In this document: piece after piece, positions 32,375-38,677 of the stretch
How positions within the stretch are numbered: the stretch's first letter is position 1
Layout: each line of letters begins with the position of its first letter
Assembly: GCA_947302655.1 (NCBI GenBank)
Contig: CAMYVW010000002.1
Span: 233,537-297,536 of the forward strand
DNA: 64,000 nt
Source of the DNA: an uncultured Mycoplasmatota bacterium
GTDB lineage: Bacteria; Bacillota_I; Bacilli_A; RF39; UBA660
Reading direction: 5' to 3'
Program-made: the position numbers and the translations under genes
The notes under the pieces: generated by a model
Database searches by the model: none
Told to the model about the DNA's origin: nothing
The model's input: the letters and a program-made list of their open reading frames with translations, nothing else

Positions 32375-34324
32375 ATGAAGAGAAAATTATTGTTTTTCGT
32401 TTCACTTAGTTTAGTTGTTGTTTTATCATATTTTACTGTTAAAGCTTTAACTTATAATCATGAAACTCTTGATATAATTGATATTCATAAAAACGGTGGA
32501 ACAGCTGCTACAACTCATGAGAAAGATGTAAGAGAAACAAATGTAACTGTTGAAAACTTAGGTTATACATCAAGTGGTTATTTAGGTAAAGTTACTTTAG
32601 ATGTAGAACCAGGATATTATGTATCTAGTTTTGAAGCAACGCATATGTCTGTAGATGGCCCGTTAATGCTTGGTTTTGAAGCTGGAGCTGAATCTGGAGG
32701 ATTCTTTAGAGATAATCCTTATAGAGCAGATAAAACTGAATATCAGTTTTTAATACCAGAAGGTGCTTCTGATGAAGATCCGGTTAATGTAACTTATAAT
32801 CTTACGCAAAAGAAACCTATTGATATAACTTATTTTAAATATACAAGTAATGATACTTCAGAAAATGCTTATGGTGACATAAGTAATTATGATTTAGATA
32901 ACGAACTTCCTTTAATTGATGCATATAGAGATGGTGATATCATTTTACCAGAAGATTGTATGGAAAAAGGATGTGCCGTAAAATTTAAATTTACTAATGA
33001 AGATGAGTATAATGAATATAAAAATCATAAAATAACTGAAGAACATACTCCATGGGTATGGGCTGATGGATTTATATTTACTGATCATGGTGATGAAAGA
33101 ACTTTAATTGCTAATGATCAAATGTGTGTTGAAAATGATAATGCTGATGGATACTATTGCTACTTAGTAGTTACAAAAGGTTTTGAAGAAGTTGGTAATG
33201 CACCATTTACTATTGGTTATACAAAAATGAATATTTTTGCTCCAAATACAGCTGGAATTAAAGTGTCTTTAGATATTGAAAACTTCTTTGATACTCTTAA
33301 TGATAAAGATCAAATAACATTTAGTAATAATAAAAAAGAGGCTAGTATTGAAGCTTTCTATGGAACTAGAACAATTACTTTAGAAAAACTTACTCCTAAA
33401 GCTTTAGTTAAAGATGGTAGTCAACATATGGGTTCACTTAAATCATTTGATGATATAACTGGTTCTGGTTATGGATATAATGTTTACTATAATAATATGA
33501 CTGGAAAAGGCTTTATAAATATTGATTCTTATTATCAAGATAAAATAGCAATAGAGTTTAATATTACTAATAATAATGAAGATATCTTTGGTGGTAAAGT
33601 TAAAATAAATCTTGATAGATTTGCATTTAATAACTGGGTTACTGAAGTTGATGCTCAAGGTAGAAACTGTGAAGAAGGCAATAATGGCAACAACTGTGCT
33701 AGTGGTAGATATTATTCAGTGCAGTATAGAGGTATTCCTAAGTTTATGTATATAACTGAAGAAGAACAAGAAAAACAGCAAACTACTGGACCTCAAACTG
33801 TTATTGATTGGTATTATGAAGATGATGCTTCACATGATGGGGAATTAATTCTTAGAAAGGTAGGACCTACAAATGATCCTGTCTATGAAAGAAACACAGA
33901 ATTTAATCCACATGCTATAGCGCTATTTTATGATGAAAATGATGAAATAGTATTAACTAAAGATTTTGATTTAAATAGTGAAGTATATTATGAAGGATTT
34001 GTTACTAGAGATAAATTTAATGAATTATATGAAGGCGCAGATGTAAAAGACGAAGATGGAAATCCAGTAACTGTTGATGAGGATTATGTTAGATTAGGTA
34101 TAAATAATATGCCTCTAATTAAAGATGTTACTTATTTCTTTAGAAATATAGAAGGAACTATAATGCATGAAATAGTTTTAATTAGTAAAGAAGAAGCTAG
34201 TGACATGCATATTAAAAAGATAGCGTTATTCTTAATTAATGGTGAACTAGATAATGGTAATATACCAGAACTTACATATGGACTTGGTGAAGGTAGAACA
34301 TTTGAAATAAGAGGTGAGAATTAA
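32375..34324 (+). CDS. Hypothetical secreted protein (signal peptide).
   Basis: N-terminal signal or anchor LLFFVSLSLVVVLSYFTVKA followed by a large acidic secreted domain. Confidence 0.5.
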   Translation: MKRKLLFFVSLSLVVVLSYFTVKALTYNHETLDIIDIHKNGGTAATTHEKDVRETNVTVENLGYTSSGYLGKVTLDVEPGYYVSSFEATHMSVDGPLMLGFEAGAESGGFFRDNPYRADKTEYQFLIPEGASDEDPVNVTYNLTQKKPIDITYFKYTSNDTSENAYGDISNYDLDNELPLIDAYRDGDIILPEDCMEKGCAVKFKFTNEDEYNEYKNHKITEEHTPWVWADGFIFTDHGDERTLIANDQMCVENDNADGYYCYLVVTKGFEEVGNAPFTIGYTKMNIFAPNTAGIKVSLDIENFFDTLNDKDQITFSNNKKEASIEAFYGTRTITLEKLTPKALVKDGSQHMGSLKSFDDITGSGYGYNVYYNNMTGKGFINIDSYYQDKIAIEFNITNNNEDIFGGKVKINLDRFAFNNWVTEVDAQGRNCEEGNNGNNCASGRYYSVQYRGIPKFMYITEEEQEKQQTTGPQTVIDWYYEDDASHDGELILRKVGPTNDPVYERNTEFNPHAIALFYDENDEIVLTKDFDLNSEVYYEGFVTRDKFNELYEGADVKDEDGNPVTVDEDYVRLGINNMPLIKDVTYFFRNIEGTIMHEIVLISKEEASDMHIKKIALFLINGELDNGNIPELTYGLGEGRTFEIRGEN

Positions 34325-34325
34325 T

Positions 34326-35555
34326 ATGAAAAAAATAAAATACTTACTTCTTACAGTATTATTTATTTTCCCAATAAAAGCATATGCTACTACTATTAAT
34401 ACTGATTTTGATGAAAGCACATGTACACTTAATGTATCTGGTAATTTTACAGGCGTTAGTGCTCATGATGTACAAGTATTACTTACGAAAAAACCTAATG
34501 AAACAAAAGGTTTAAAAAATACTGAATTAAATAATAATAGTTATTCTACAAGTTTTGTTTTAACATTTGATGAAGAAACAAAACTTGATGTAACTGTTGC
34601 AGATCAAAATGGATCAGGCGATACAACAAAAGAAGATGTTACTATTCCTGCTTGTGAACTTGCAGTTCAAGAGGGAAGAGTTACAACAATTGAAGATTTT
34701 GATCATCATGGACACTCTATTACAATTAAAGATACTACTATTGGTTTTGATGAACATGATAGATTAGATATTGATATGCTTGATATCGATGGAATTAATG
34801 CAATGTTACAATTATTTGAAGGTAGTGAAGAATACGATGGATTCTTAGCTATTAAAAATGGTATTATAGAACAATTAGGTGAATATAAAGTATTTGCTCA
34901 ATTTATGAATGTTTATTTAAGAAATTCACATTTAAATGATATTGATTATTCAAATTATACTAAAGGATTTATTTTAAGATTAAATATGCCTAAAGAAGTA
35001 TATAATCAATATCCTGGTTTAAAAGCAGCTTATTTTGATCAAGCAAATATTAAAATAGGTGATGTTATTGAAACATCTTATGATGAAGAAAATGAATTAT
35101 TTATATTAAATATTTCTAAACCTGGTCAATTTGTACTTTATATAGATAATGATTATGAATTTATCGATAATACTGCTAATCCTAAAATTACTTTAGGAGA
35201 ATCTAATAATTTAACTTTAAAAATTAATGCTGAATTATCTAAATTTAAAAAATTAACTATTGATGGTAAAGATATAAAAGATGTAGATAAAAAATCTGGA
35301 AGCACTATTCTAACTATATCAAAAGATTATTTAAACACTTTATCTGCAGGTAAACATGATGTTGTTGCATATTTTGCTGATGGATCAGCTAAAACAACAT
35401 TAACAGTTGCAGAAAAAGAAGAATCTGTTATTTCTAAGTTAGTTAATCCAAAAACAAGTGATCCTGTATATATTTATATTAGATTAGCTATCTTATCATT
35501 TGCAGGATTATCTACTGTAGTTGCAGTAAATAAATTTAAAAAGAAAAATAATTAA
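34326..35555 (+). CDS. Hypothetical cell-surface protein (signal peptide plus C-terminal TM anchor).
   Basis: Signal peptide LLLTVLFIFPIKAYA and a C-terminal hydrophobic anchor followed by KKKNN. Confidence 0.5.
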   Translation: MKKIKYLLLTVLFIFPIKAYATTINTDFDESTCTLNVSGNFTGVSAHDVQVLLTKKPNETKGLKNTELNNNSYSTSFVLTFDEETKLDVTVADQNGSGDTTKEDVTIPACELAVQEGRVTTIEDFDHHGHSITIKDTTIGFDEHDRLDIDMLDIDGINAMLQLFEGSEEYDGFLAIKNGIIEQLGEYKVFAQFMNVYLRNSHLNDIDYSNYTKGFILRLNMPKEVYNQYPGLKAAYFDQANIKIGDVIETSYDEENELFILNISKPGQFVLYIDNDYEFIDNTANPKITLGESNNLTLKINAELSKFKKLTIDGKDIKDVDKKSGSTILTISKDYLNTLSAGKHDVVAYFADGSAKTTLTVAEKEESVISKLVNPKTSDPVYIYIRLAILSFAGLSTVVAVNKFKKKNN

Positions 35556-35585
35556 AAAAAACACATCAAATGATGTGTTTTTTTG
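35555..35585. terminator. Bidirectional Rho-independent terminator.
   Basis: aaaaaaaACACATCAaaTGATGTGTttttttt is a perfect 8-bp stem with A-tracts and T-tracts on both sides. Confidence 0.65.
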
Positions 35586-35619
35586 TATATTTTTTAAGAT
35601 TGTTTGATATAATTAATAT

Positions 35620-35697
35620 GTAAGTGCTACCCATGTTGGGCAGTGCCTACTATGATTTCGGACACCGGCTCACTTAAGGGCTGGTGACTTTTTTTAT
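35620..35697 (+). ncRNA. Candidate antitoxin sRNA, convergent with and overlapping the 3' end of the small toxin ORF.
   Basis: Extended -10 TGaTATAAT at 35605-35613. The GC-rich body (GUGCUACCCAUGUUGGGCAGUGCC...) stands out in an AT-rich genome. The terminator CACCGGCucacuuaaggGCUGGUG plus UUUUUUU lies at 35664-35697. Confidence 0.45.
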
Positions 35698-35762
35698 ATT
35701 AATCTTAAGATAACAAGAATTAACATAATTATTATTACTAAAAAACAAAAGTCTTTGTTCAT
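35694..35762 (-). CDS. Candidate type I toxin: a 22-aa hydrophobic peptide MNKDFCFLVIIIMLILVILRLI.
   Basis: Perfect RBS AAGGAGG 6 nt upstream of the ATG on the minus strand. It forms a single TM-like helix. A sigma-A-like promoter (TTGAAA-16-TATAAT) sits about 100 nt upstream, with a GC-rich structured 5'UTR. An antisense sRNA is encoded opposite its 3' end. Confidence 0.45.
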   Translation of the reverse strand: MNKDFCFLVIIIMLILVILRLI

Positions 35763-35866
35763 AGCCTATGCCTCCTTTACTTAAAACCCCCTGGTTCTTC
35801 AGGACTACGAAATCCTAAGCAAAAAAGTTAAAGCAGGCACCACCAACGTAGGTAACACGGAAAGTT

Positions 35867-35894
35867 ATTATAGATATTTATTTATATATTTCAA
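35867..35894 (-). promoter_or_regulatory. Putative sigma-A promoter for the toxin mRNA.
   Basis: On the minus strand: TTGAAA (35894-35889), 16-nt spacer, TATAAT (35872-35867). Confidence 0.4.
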
Positions 35895-36046
35895 CATCTC
35901 TCCTAAAACATATTATTATTCGACAAATATTAATATAAAATCTTTACATTTTTATAGTGTAAATCTATGTAAAATTAGTTATTATTTATTGCCTTAAAAT
36001 AGGCACTTTGCTATAATAATTTTTGTGAAATTGGAGGAATAAAAAT

Positions 36047-38677
36047 ATGACTAAATATGTATACTTATTTAGTGAAGGTAATGCTGATATGAGAAACCTT
36101 CTTGGTGGTAAAGGTGCTAACCTTGCTGAAATGACTAATATTGGTCTTCCAGTACCTCAAGGTTTTACTATCACTACTGAAGCTTGTACTAAGTATTATG
36201 AAGATGGAAGAGAAATTAACTCTGAAATCCAAGAACAAATTAATGAATATATCGTTAAGATGGAAGAAATTACTGGAAAGAAATTTGGAGATGTAGAAAA
36301 TCCACTTTTAGTTTCAGTAAGATCTGGTGCTAGAGCATCAATGCCTGGTATGATGGATACTATTTTAAATTTAGGTTTAAATGAAGAAGTAGTAGAATCA
36401 ATTGCTAAACAATCTAATAATCCTAGATGGGCATGGGATTGTTATAGAAGATTTATTCAAATGTATTCTGACGTAGTTATGGAAGTTGGTAAGAAATACT
36501 TTGAAGAATTAATTGATAAAATGAAAGAAGCTAAGGGAGTTAAACAAGATGTTGAACTTTCTGCTGAAGATTTAAAAGAATTAGCTAATGAGTTTAAAGC
36601 TGAATATAAAGCTAAAATCGGTAGTGAGTTCCCAACTGATCCAAAAGAACAATTAATGGGAGCTATTAAAGCTGTATTTAGATCTTGGGATAACCCTAGA
36701 GCTAACGTATATAGAAGAGATAATGATATTCCATATTCATGGGGAACTGCTGTAAATGTTCAATCTATGGCATTCGGTAATATGGGAGATGACTGTGGTA
36801 CAGGTGTTGCCTTTACTCGTGACCCTGCAACAGGTGAAAAAGGTTTATTTGGTGAATTCTTAACTAATGCACAAGGTGAAGACGTTGTTGCTGGTGTTAG
36901 AACTCCAATGCATATAACTGAAATGGAAGAAAAATTCCCAGAAGCATTTAAACAATTTAAAGAAGTTTGTGAAACTCTAGAAAAACATTATAGAGATATG
37001 CAAGATATGGAATTTACTGTTGAACATGGTAAACTTTACATGCTTCAAACAAGAAATGGTAAAAGAACTGCTAAAGCAGCACTAAAAATTGCTTGTGATT
37101 TAGTAGATGAAGGAATGAGATCAGAAGAAGAAGCTGTAGCTATGATTGATCCTCGTAACCTTGATACATTACTACATCCACAATTTGATGCTACTGCACT
37201 TAAAAATGCATCAGTACTTGGTAAAGGTTTAGGAGCATCTCCTGGAGCTGCTTGTGGACAAATCGTATTTAGTGCTGAAGATGCTGTTAAATGGAAAGAA
37301 AATGGTAAAAAAGTCGTTTTAGTTAGACTTGAAACTTCACCAGAAGATATTACTGGTATGAAAGCTTCTCAAGGTATTTTGACTGTTCGTGGTGGTATGA
37401 CAAGTCATGCTGCAGTAGTTGCTCGTGGTATGGGTACTTGCTGTGTATCTGGTTGTGGAGATATCGCAATGGATGAAGCTAATAAACAATTTACTTTAGC
37501 TGGTAAAACATTCCATGAAGGTGATGAAATTTCTATTGATGGTACTACAGGTGTTATTTATGAAGGATTAGTTCCTACAGTTGATGCTACTATTTCAGGT
37601 GAATTTGGCAGAGTTATGGAATGGGCTGATAAATTCAGAACATTAAAGGTTAGAACTAATGCTGATACTCCAAGAGATGCTAAAAAAGCTCATGAACTTG
37701 GAGCACAAGGTATTGGTTTATGTAGAACAGAACATATGTTCTTCGAAGAAGATAGAATTGCTGCATTTAGAGAAATGATTTGTGCAGATACAGTTGAAGA
37801 AAGAGAAGCTGCACTTGATAAGATTTTACCTTATCAACAATCAGACTTTGAAAATATGTATGAAGCCCTTGAAGGTGATTCAATGGTAGTTAGATACTTA
37901 GACCCACCTCTACATGAATTCGTTCCAACTGAAGAAGCTGATATTAAAAAACTTGCTGATGCTCAAGGTAAATCAGTTGAAAGAATTAAAGAAATTATTG
38001 ATGCACTTCATGAATTTAACCCAATGATGGGTCATAGAGGATGTCGTTTAGCTGTTACTTATCCAGAAATAGCTAAGATGCAAACTAAAGCTGTTATTAG
38101 AGCTGCTATTAATGTTAATAAGAAACATCCAGAATGGAATATAACTCCAGAAATTATGATTCCTCTTGTTGGAGAAGTTAAAGAGTTAAAATATGTTAAA
38201 GATGTAGTTGTTGCTACAGCTGATGAAGAAATTAAAAATGCTGGAGTTGAAATGAAATACCAAGTTGGTACTATGATTGAAATTCCAAGAGCTGCTTTAA
38301 CTGCTGATGAAATTGCTAAAGAAGCTGAATTCTTCTCATTTGGTACTAACGACTTAACTCAAATGACATTTGGATTCTCAAGAGATGATGCTGGTAAATT
38401 CTTACCTGCTTACTATGAAAAGAAAATTTATGAAGAAGATCCATTTAAGACACTTGATCAAACTGGTGTTGGTCAATTAATTAAAATGGCTGCTGAAAAA
38501 GGAAGAAGCACTAGACCTGAACTTCATTTAGGAGTTTGTGGTGAAACTGGTGGAGATCCTAAATCAATTGAATTCTATAATGCTGTTGGACTAGATTATG
38601 TATCTTGCTCACCATTTAGAGTTCCAGTTGCTAGACTTGCTGCTGCACAAGCTGCAATTAAAGCAAAGAAGAACTAA
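36047..38677 (+). CDS. ppdK: Pyruvate, phosphate dikinase.
   Basis: 876 aa with the PEP-utilising enzyme mobile-domain motif GGMTSHAAVVARGMG and the nucleotide-binding N-terminus. Full-length PPDK. Confidence 0.9.
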   Translation: MTKYVYLFSEGNADMRNLLGGKGANLAEMTNIGLPVPQGFTITTEACTKYYEDGREINSEIQEQINEYIVKMEEITGKKFGDVENPLLVSVRSGARASMPGMMDTILNLGLNEEVVESIAKQSNNPRWAWDCYRRFIQMYSDVVMEVGKKYFEELIDKMKEAKGVKQDVELSAEDLKELANEFKAEYKAKIGSEFPTDPKEQLMGAIKAVFRSWDNPRANVYRRDNDIPYSWGTAVNVQSMAFGNMGDDCGTGVAFTRDPATGEKGLFGEFLTNAQGEDVVAGVRTPMHITEMEEKFPEAFKQFKEVCETLEKHYRDMQDMEFTVEHGKLYMLQTRNGKRTAKAALKIACDLVDEGMRSEEEAVAMIDPRNLDTLLHPQFDATALKNASVLGKGLGASPGAACGQIVFSAEDAVKWKENGKKVVLVRLETSPEDITGMKASQGILTVRGGMTSHAAVVARGMGTCCVSGCGDIAMDEANKQFTLAGKTFHEGDEISIDGTTGVIYEGLVPTVDATISGEFGRVMEWADKFRTLKVRTNADTPRDAKKAHELGAQGIGLCRTEHMFFEEDRIAAFREMICADTVEEREAALDKILPYQQSDFENMYEALEGDSMVVRYLDPPLHEFVPTEEADIKKLADAQGKSVERIKEIIDALHEFNPMMGHRGCRLAVTYPEIAKMQTKAVIRAAINVNKKHPEWNITPEIMIPLVGEVKELKYVKDVVVATADEEIKNAGVEMKYQVGTMIEIPRAALTADEIAKEAEFFSFGTNDLTQMTFGFSRDDAGKFLPAYYEKKIYEEDPFKTLDQTGVGQLIKMAAEKGRSTRPELHLGVCGETGGDPKSIEFYNAVGLDYVSCSPFRVPVARLAAAQAAIKAKKN

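Follow-up and report, generated by a model that had tools for sequence, protein, structure and literature searches.

A candidate type I toxin-antitoxin-like module in front of ppdK in uncultured Bacillota of the rumen and gut, with a predicted fold-back of its peptide mRNA

Two convergent genes in front of ppdK

Does the spacer in front of a ppdK-like gene in an uncultured Mycoplasmatota bacterium hold a toxin-antitoxin (TA) locus, and if so, of what kind? The spacer lies in a 64-kb stretch of contig CAMYVW010000002.1 (hereafter the window), where 490 nt of very AT-rich DNA separate a plus-strand open reading frame (ORF) ending at 35555 from the ppdK-like gene (36047-38677), homologues of whose product carry PPDK_N, PEP-utilizers and PEP-utilizers_C domains. 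A sequence-only reading of this spacer had placed in it a gene for a short hydrophobic peptide on the minus strand, with its own sigma-A promoter, facing a small RNA (sRNA) gene on the plus strand in the 3′-overlap arrangement of TxpA/RatA and BsrG/SR4. All of the features that it named are present, with coordinates that are exact or off by 1-2 nt (Table 1), and its two GC-rich blocks do stand out from their surroundings, the GC content of 0.12-0.20 in the flanks rising to 0.55 across 35630-35689 and to 0.45 across 35750-35809. The account of the genes survives comparison of eight homologous modules; that of the blocks was incomplete, as they had been treated as independent, yet the leader of the peptide mRNA repeats the sRNA hairpin in the same sense. 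We conclude that the locus is probably a chromosomal type I TA-like module of an undescribed family, in which a 3′ overlap is combined with a hok-like fold-back of the mRNA.

We refer to the sRNA as A, to the homologous 5′ part of the peptide mRNA as B, and to the minus-strand antisense of A as A*. The loci compared comprise the DNA around twelve ppdK genes, from a set of PpdK homologues (89-100% identity) that derive almost entirely from ENA rumen and gut metagenome assemblies, and one JGI contig (L013), the single locus returned when metagenome contigs were scanned with the conserved ppdK promoter. Eight full modules were identified, all on contigs of uncultured rumen or gut Bacillota: those of the window, L012, L013, L014, L021 and L051, and two in L020 (L020a and L020b). 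In every locus that carries a module it lies immediately upstream of ppdK. Because conserved promoters, a 22-codon ORF, and an sRNA hairpin and terminator recur together in seven further loci, the arrangement in the window is beyond chance.

Table 1. Features of the module in the window, and peptides encoded by the eight full modules.
Feature	Position	Strand	Details
Bidirectional terminator hairpin	35555..35584		A- and T-runs on either side; reported on both strands; ends upstream gene
Extended -10 of sRNA A	35605..35613	+	TGATATAAT
sRNA A, candidate antitoxin	35618..35696	+	about 75-79 nt
sRNA A 5′ hairpin	35620-35650	+	
sRNA A single-stranded linker	35651-35662	+	
sRNA A intrinsic terminator	35663-35686, then U7 35689-35695	+	9-pair stem
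Element A*, 3′ arm of fold-back helix	35626..35651	-	in mRNA 3′ untranslated region; exact antisense of sRNA 5′ hairpin
22-codon ORF, candidate type I toxin	35694..35762	-	MNKDFCFLVIIIMLILVILRLI; stop 35694-35696
Shine-Dalgarno AAGGAGG	35772..35778	-	9 nt before ATG
Small hairpin AACC-AGGG-GGUU	35785..35796	-	directly 5′ of Shine-Dalgarno; AGGGG invariant in all modules
Element B, 5′ arm of fold-back helix	35832..35856	-	first ~25 nt of mRNA; copy of sRNA hairpin
Peptide mRNA 5′ untranslated region, predicted	35763..35860	-	~98 nt; element B, variable hairpin, conserved small hairpin, Shine-Dalgarno
Peptide mRNA transcription start, predicted	~35860	-	
Peptide mRNA promoter	35867..35894	-	-35 TTGAAA 35894-35889, 16-nt spacer, -10 TATAAT 35872-35867; 11/12 matches
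Peptide, window, L021 and L051			MNKDFCFLVIIIMLILVILRLI
Peptide, L020a			MNKDFCFLVIIIMLILVVLRLI
Peptide, L012			MTKSFMLYVIIILLIVVILRLI
Peptide, L014			MTRSTILYIIIILLIIVILKLV
Peptide, L013			MRKDVWSLIIEILLIAVILHLI
Peptide, L020b			MRYYVMFWIIEILLILIILKLI

Comparison of the eight sequences indicates that the peptide ORF is a real gene under purifying selection. Its product is exactly 22 aa long in every module and follows one pattern: the N-terminus is polar and basic, some 15 hydrophobic residues form the core, and a basic residue stands three positions from the C-terminus. In the module alignment the start and stop codons of the ORF align without indels and the untranslated regions (UTRs) carry them, and mean pairwise identity is 0.71 in the ORF, 0.62 in the leader and 0.46 in the terminator-antisense stretch. 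The synonymous measure pS (0.42-0.84) exceeds its non-synonymous counterpart pN (0.19-0.38) in every divergent pair of ORFs, substitutions being mostly synonymous or hydrophobic-for-hydrophobic; the window and L051 ORFs are separated by five synonymous substitutions and no non-synonymous ones. Upstream, TTGAA and TATA.T of the promoter are invariant in 8/8 modules, and a Shine-Dalgarno sequence (SD) of the GGAG type is found in all of them. Pfam and NCBIfam searches returned no family for any module peptide.

The leader is long and structured, as the sequence-only reading had it, with a predicted length slightly above the ~90 nt proposed there. The small hairpin next to its SD shows one compensatory change in RNAalifold (pairs 115-118 with 123-126) and, together with the U-run that follows, a weak terminator-like score (35804..35789); it could serve as an attenuator, as a decoy SD or as a contact site for a protein or RNA.

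The comparative data likewise indicate that sRNA A is a real plus-strand gene. The extended -10 (TGnTATAAT) is found in 8/8 full modules, 6 nt before an equally conserved GTAAGTG. The predicted RNA of the window (35618-35697, plus strand) folds at -27.5 kcal/mol (z = -3.1 against shuffles), and the succession of hairpin, linker and terminator was recovered in all eight A RNAs folded, which are 68-79 nt long and represent seven full modules and a decayed copy in L011 (see below); the A of L051 was not in this set and scores 62.8 bits with a covariance model of A. RNAalifold recovers an 11-bp hairpin, and the terminator stems, though varied in sequence, fold in every case, with a U-run behind them that exists on the plus strand only. 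Within the hairpin, plus-strand pairing gives 22 G·U cells and a single A·C cell, which indicates selection as a plus-strand RNA. With the covariance model all A copies score 62-82 bits, and it gave no other match in the window or among 29 viral contigs; the latter had been picked up by a scan for the sRNA promoter and 5′ end, and since none of these 29 matches scores with the model, we attribute them to chance. Where A meets the peptide mRNA, the proposed overlap holds for the 3′UTR and fails for the last sense codons, as the U-tract reaches the stop codon only.

Predicted pairing between the two ends of the peptide mRNA

Aligned in their directions of transcription, A and B agree in 73% of columns and share a common order of TATAAT, a gap of ~7-10 nt, GTGyTACCyAyGTTGG..GTGCCTrCT, and a terminator-like hairpin. 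Two occurrences of the motif common to both GC-rich blocks, and no more, exist in the 64-kb window, where shuffles predict 0, and neither pattern nor covariance model finds a second copy of the module there. Since A and B are same-sense copies, B is complementary to A*. Whether the two can meet in one molecule depends on the extent of the mRNA, and because the A terminator is not a minus-strand terminator, the mRNA should read through the whole A gene and carry A* in its 3′UTR as a perfect antisense of A. No minus-strand terminator is found between the stop codon and A*; the next is the hairpin at 35555-35584, which has counterparts in L012, L020, L021 and L051 and is the likely point at which the peptide mRNA ends, once past the sRNA gene.

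Pairing of B with A* is borne out by the alignment of the eight modules. In mRNA orientation, RNAalifold returns a 22-bp helix between columns 54-78 (B) and 261-286 (A*), in which 96.0% of cells are paired and 7 pairs show changes in both partners. These values were not attained in any of 500 column shuffles, and pairing falls to 31-45% when the partner is displaced by 1-3 columns. Three covarying pairs, which join columns 63-65 to 275-277, occupy what would be the loops of local B and A* hairpins, and thus support a long-range helix rather than two local hairpins. Cells that depart from Watson-Crick pairing comprise 29 G·U and 2 A·C (in 14 and 2 columns), an excess that points to selection for pairing in the minus-strand RNA and, through it, to a peptide mRNA that extends across the A gene. 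Free drift of A is disfavoured by the same count, as drift towards A's own G·U pairs would yield A·C in B:A*. The closing B:A* helix is present in the minimum free energy structure of 7/7 mRNAs folded; the duplex is predicted at -25 to -47 kcal/mol, compared with -1.5 to -6.7 for B alone and -5.8 to -13.6 for A* alone (in the window, -40.2 against -5.7 and -13.6 kcal/mol).

Two arms in inverted orientation on the DNA, one on either side of the ORF, could also be read as a repeat acting at the level of DNA (a mobile-element relic, a recombination site or gene-converted arms), with the ORF a by-product of T-rich sequence, which encodes hydrophobic residues. We find this scarcely credible. An inverted repeat or gene conversion would give G·U and A·C mismatches equally, in place of the 29 against 2 found between the arms on the minus-strand RNA; the A-specific (GTAAGTG) and B-specific flanks are distinct in all modules, so there has been no tract-wide conversion; the ORF is of fixed length and under purifying selection; only one arm is kept in L011; and no further copies of the repeat were found in the window or the viral contigs.

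A different explanation for the likeness of A and B is that they are two copies of a cis-regulatory RNA (a riboswitch, or a protein-binding leader with an attenuator), of which B controls the peptide and A is an orphan or sponge; their similarity would then reflect a common ligand and not pairing. Each does begin ~7 nt past a -10 box, and in each a 5′ hairpin comes first and then a terminator-like hairpin with its U-run. A known structured RNA family, which the sequence-only reading had itself raised as an alternative, was sought with Rfam in the window and seven other loci, and no match reached the gathering score; at E-values up to 10 the hits consist of terminator hairpins and AT-rich noise (15.7-22.2 bits, with cut-offs of 39-92), and we accordingly reject a riboswitch or known sRNA. 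The hairpin tops, moreover, differ between loci and match within each locus, whereas a common ligand would conserve nucleotides across loci, and the ratio of 29 G·U to 2 A·C is expected from pairing of B with A* and not from independent aptamers. A shared cis-regulatory element is, on these grounds, very unlikely.

More tentatively, the 5′ end of the mRNA may have evolved as a mimic of the mRNA's own antitoxin, having arisen by inverted duplication of the antitoxin gene, so that mRNA end and antitoxin compete for one site in the 3′UTR. This scenario, which we find plausible while leaning slightly against it, would create a three-state switch: a closed fold-back that is stable, silent and resistant to the antitoxin; an antitoxin-bound form that is cleaved; and an open form that is translated.

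Possible action of the sRNA and relation to known systems

Under the TA interpretation, the strong sigma-A promoter on the minus strand would drive an mRNA of ~300 nt for the 22-aa single-helix peptide, presumed to be a membrane toxin, and the convergent extended -10 promoter would drive the ~75-nt sRNA A. Pairing of B with A* would close the mRNA into a 5′-3′ fold-back which, like full-length hok mRNA, would be stable and poorly translated, with its SD sequestered. A would then nucleate on the complement of its linker in the 3′UTR and displace B, and the resulting perfect duplex of ~75 bp between A and the 3′UTR would be cut by RNase III, as for TxpA/RatA, destroying the mRNA; the freed 3′ arm of B may in addition extend the anti-SD helix, as in SR4/bsrG. 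Should A be lost, the peptide would accumulate, insert into the membrane and damage it.

Several of these steps can be set against structure predictions. A is perfectly complementary to the mRNA 3′UTR, a relation that requires the mRNA to continue past 35651, as the B:A* covariation implies. The linker of A (6-10 nt) is single-stranded with a probability of 0.85-0.97, and its complement in the closed mRNA with one of 0.37-0.87; such an unpaired stretch in both partners would give A a natural toehold for displacing B. Pairing of A in trans with the leader or ribosome-binding site, in the style of SprA1AS or Fst, was considered and rejected (RNAduplex z of -0.9 to +1.3 against shuffled A). In the seven mRNAs folded, most of the SD and/or AUG is predicted to lie in pairs (unpaired probability of the SD, 0.00-0.48); an anti-SD helix is predicted in 7/7, usually with the segment just 3′ of B as the partner. 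When the 3′UTR was blocked, mimicking bound A, predicted SD accessibility was unchanged in the window, L012 and L014, changed slightly in L020a and L021, and showed a clear drop in L013, where 0.27 became 0.07, and in L020b, where 0.17 became 0.00.

The module is closest in layout to the TxpA/RatA class of Bacillus subtilis (with BsrG/SR4, BsrE/SR5 and YonT/SR6), with which it shares convergent toxin and antisense genes, a Gram-positive genome and pairing at the 3′ ends. The transcripts of txpA and ratA overlap by ~75 nt at their 3′ ends, outside the translation initiation region, and decay is rnc-dependent (PMC4147584); SR4, which binds bsrG at a distant 3′ site, lengthens from there the helix that sequesters the SD (PMC3834814); and antitoxins of this class act mainly via RNase III-dependent mRNA decay (PMC4147584; PMC3834814). 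The toxins of the class, however, have 30-59 aa in place of 22, no prophage or skin-like element surrounds the window module, and Pfam, NCBIfam and Rfam reveal no homology to TxpA, BsrG, RatA or SR4. It differs further in that the 3′UTR target of the antitoxin also pairs with the mRNA 5′ end, itself a copy of the antitoxin. We know of no 5′-3′ helix of this antitoxin-copy kind in TxpA/RatA-class systems.

A long-distance helix from the extreme 5′ end of the mRNA to its 3′UTR, as predicted here, is shared with hok/Sok and with AapA1/IsoA1 of Helicobacter pylori. In hok, the tac/fbi stem joins the 5′ end to the 3′UTR and stabilises the closed full-length mRNA, whose SD is sequestered and which is untranslated (PMC9841398); more generally, T1TAdb counts 5′-3′ long-distance interactions among the key factors that shape the structure of type I toxin mRNAs (PMC8594479). 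The antitoxins of hok and AapA1 bind the 5′ leader, and exonucleolytic trimming takes away the 3′ element; in the window module, by contrast, the 3′ element of the lock is itself the antitoxin target, so that antitoxin and mRNA 5′ end compete. The window peptide has no Pfam match, Hok included, and a Hok-type protein with a leader-pairing antitoxin is not what we find. The hosts differ too, Bacillota here and Proteobacteria or Campylobacterota for hok and AapA1.

In par of pAD1 (Fst; RNA I/RNA II), convergent RNAs meet at a terminator past the toxin stop codon, share a repeated element and conceal the SD in a 5′ structure (PMC4147584; PMC7472228), all of which have parallels in the window module, the SD-hiding structure as a prediction. 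The par repeats DRa and DRb, however, are direct on the DNA, which makes them complementary from one RNA to the other, and they block the ribosome, while the repeat described here is inverted on the DNA and therefore of the same sense in the two RNAs, and pairing of A with the leader has a z of ~0. The par terminator is shared and bidirectional, that of the window sRNA unidirectional (a U-run on the plus strand only), and the window peptide shows no match of any kind in Pfam or NCBIfam, and so none to an Fst-type family. Ibs/Sib, present in five copies in Escherichia coli MG1655 (PMC4147584), resembles the module in its very short, extremely hydrophobic peptide (18-19 aa, compared with 22 aa), but Sib covers the entire ibs ORF and its ribosome-binding site in antisense, the window sRNA overlaps the stop codon and 3′UTR only, and the sequences are unrelated. 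By sequence and layout, then, the module falls outside the TxpA/RatA, hok/AapA1 and par families, and functionally would join a 3′-overlap type I system to a 5′-3′ lock of the hok/AapA1 type.

Distribution of the module and the case for a toxin

The module is distributed unevenly among close relatives. It is absent from L019, whose PpdK is 99% identical to that of the window, and from L015-L018 (92-94%). In L020, two modules stand in tandem between topA and ppdK (1653-2500), with peptides that have diverged (MNKDFCFLVIIIMLILVVLRLI in L020a, MRYYVMFWIIEILLILIILKLI in L020b) and each with its own matching A/B hairpin pair. L011 retains a decayed module at 2756-2880, in which sRNA A is intact (62 bits with the covariance model), although TATAAA replaces its extended -10; of the peptide gene only the 3′ half remains (..WIIEILLTLIILKLY), without promoter, leader, SD, start and first codons, and its stop codon has been lost through a 1-nt deletion. 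Beyond these loci, the motif TACCYAYGTTGGN{1,4}GTGCCTRC gave 10 single matches in GTDB representative genomes, in unrelated phyla and at about the number expected by chance (estimated by hand), from which it follows that the clade's representative genomes lack either the exact shared motif or the module. Exact look-up found neither the window PpdK nor protein P0001 on record.

The surroundings of the module are themselves variable. Genes with helix-turn-helix and ParB_N domains lie downstream of ppdK in L011, L016 and L017, and a phage-type integrase lies upstream in L018; by their gene content, the ppdK flanks look like an integration hotspot. In the window, the ORFs upstream of the module (32375-35555, plus strand) encode 649 and ~409 aa without any Pfam domain, the ~409-aa product having an N-terminal signal-like segment and, towards its end, NPKTS followed by a hydrophobic anchor and basic tail, which gives it a sortase-like look; in other loci topA or other genes replace these ORFs, the topA-ppdK interval being variable. 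In L020 (5201-5484, plus strand) an ordinary T-box leader (RF00230, 105 bits) precedes a tRNA-synthetase gene (tRNA-synt_2).

Closer to ppdK, whose promoter TTGCCTTaAAATAGGnnCTTTGCTATAAT is nearly invariant across loci, the window carries TTTACA-N9-TGTAAA at 35943-35973 and then a second TGTAAAA, ~40-70 nt upstream of the ppdK -35. The TTTACA-N9-TGTAAA element is strongly conserved in L011-L014, L019-L021 and L051, whether or not a module is present, and is a candidate operator for a ppdK regulator. A conserved TCGACAAA-like motif (35919-35928, plus strand), read on the strand opposite to the peptide promoter, precedes the -35 box of that promoter by 10-30 nt; it recurs in L012, L014, L019, L020 and L021, being kept in L019 although the module is absent, and may be a regulator site or an insertion boundary.

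We infer the label "toxin-antitoxin" from architecture. As in type I systems generally, the module appears to encode a small (<~60 aa) hydrophobic protein from a conserved ORF and a separate antisense RNA gene complementary to the presumed toxin mRNA, and as in hok it is predicted to form a long-distance helix from the mRNA 5′ end to the 3′UTR. Its behaviour in populations is also TA-like: the tandem duplication in L020, the absence from relatives with PpdK 92-99% identical, and a toxin-truncated remnant in L011 that keeps the sRNA all fit a toxin-antitoxin pair.

Architecture by itself cannot separate a toxin from a benign small protein, and the peptide might instead be harmless, for example a membrane protein that modulates a transporter or sensor, tuned by cis-antisense RNA and fold-back and with no addiction function. 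The constant position next to ppdK in eight loci, the lack of mobile-element genes attached to the module and the lack of a match between the peptide and any known toxin family would suit such a protein. The L020 duplication, the patchy presence and the L011 remnant are, on the other hand, typical of TA modules and not of housekeeping small proteins, and three layers of repression (antisense RNA, fold-back and a paired SD) are characteristic of dangerous products; we therefore think a harmless peptide unlikely, though by no means far-fetched.

Some further observations weigh against the TA interpretation or the mechanism attached to it. At 22 aa the peptide is short for a membrane-spanning toxin, though Ibs peptides are shorter still, and a single fixed chromosomal position fits a vertically inherited small membrane protein as well. 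Predicted SD accessibility hardly differs between the closed and the A-bound states. The anti-SD helix has no column-conserved register and lacks support from covariation, since its pairing register differs between modules. No terminator hairpin follows A* in L013 and L014 to mark a 3′ end of the mRNA. Finally, the covariation counts are not independent events, as the eight modules are related and come from one narrow clade.

If our interpretation is correct, the module would represent a type I TA family of uncultured Bacillota from rumen and gut, among which no system has been characterised, and its 22-aa toxin would be among the shortest known. The alignment of eight modules and the covariance model provide a handle for finding further members, whose ORFs are so short that standard gene finders do not call them. 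Competition between an intramolecular and an intermolecular helix offers a simple, testable model for setting the fate of a toxin mRNA, and suggests a route by which fold-back control might evolve, via inverted duplication. The three-state switch, if true, would merge a hok-type fold-back and a RatA-type 3′ antisense RNA in one element, a form of "self-mimicry" by which a toxin mRNA would carry a copy of its own antitoxin.

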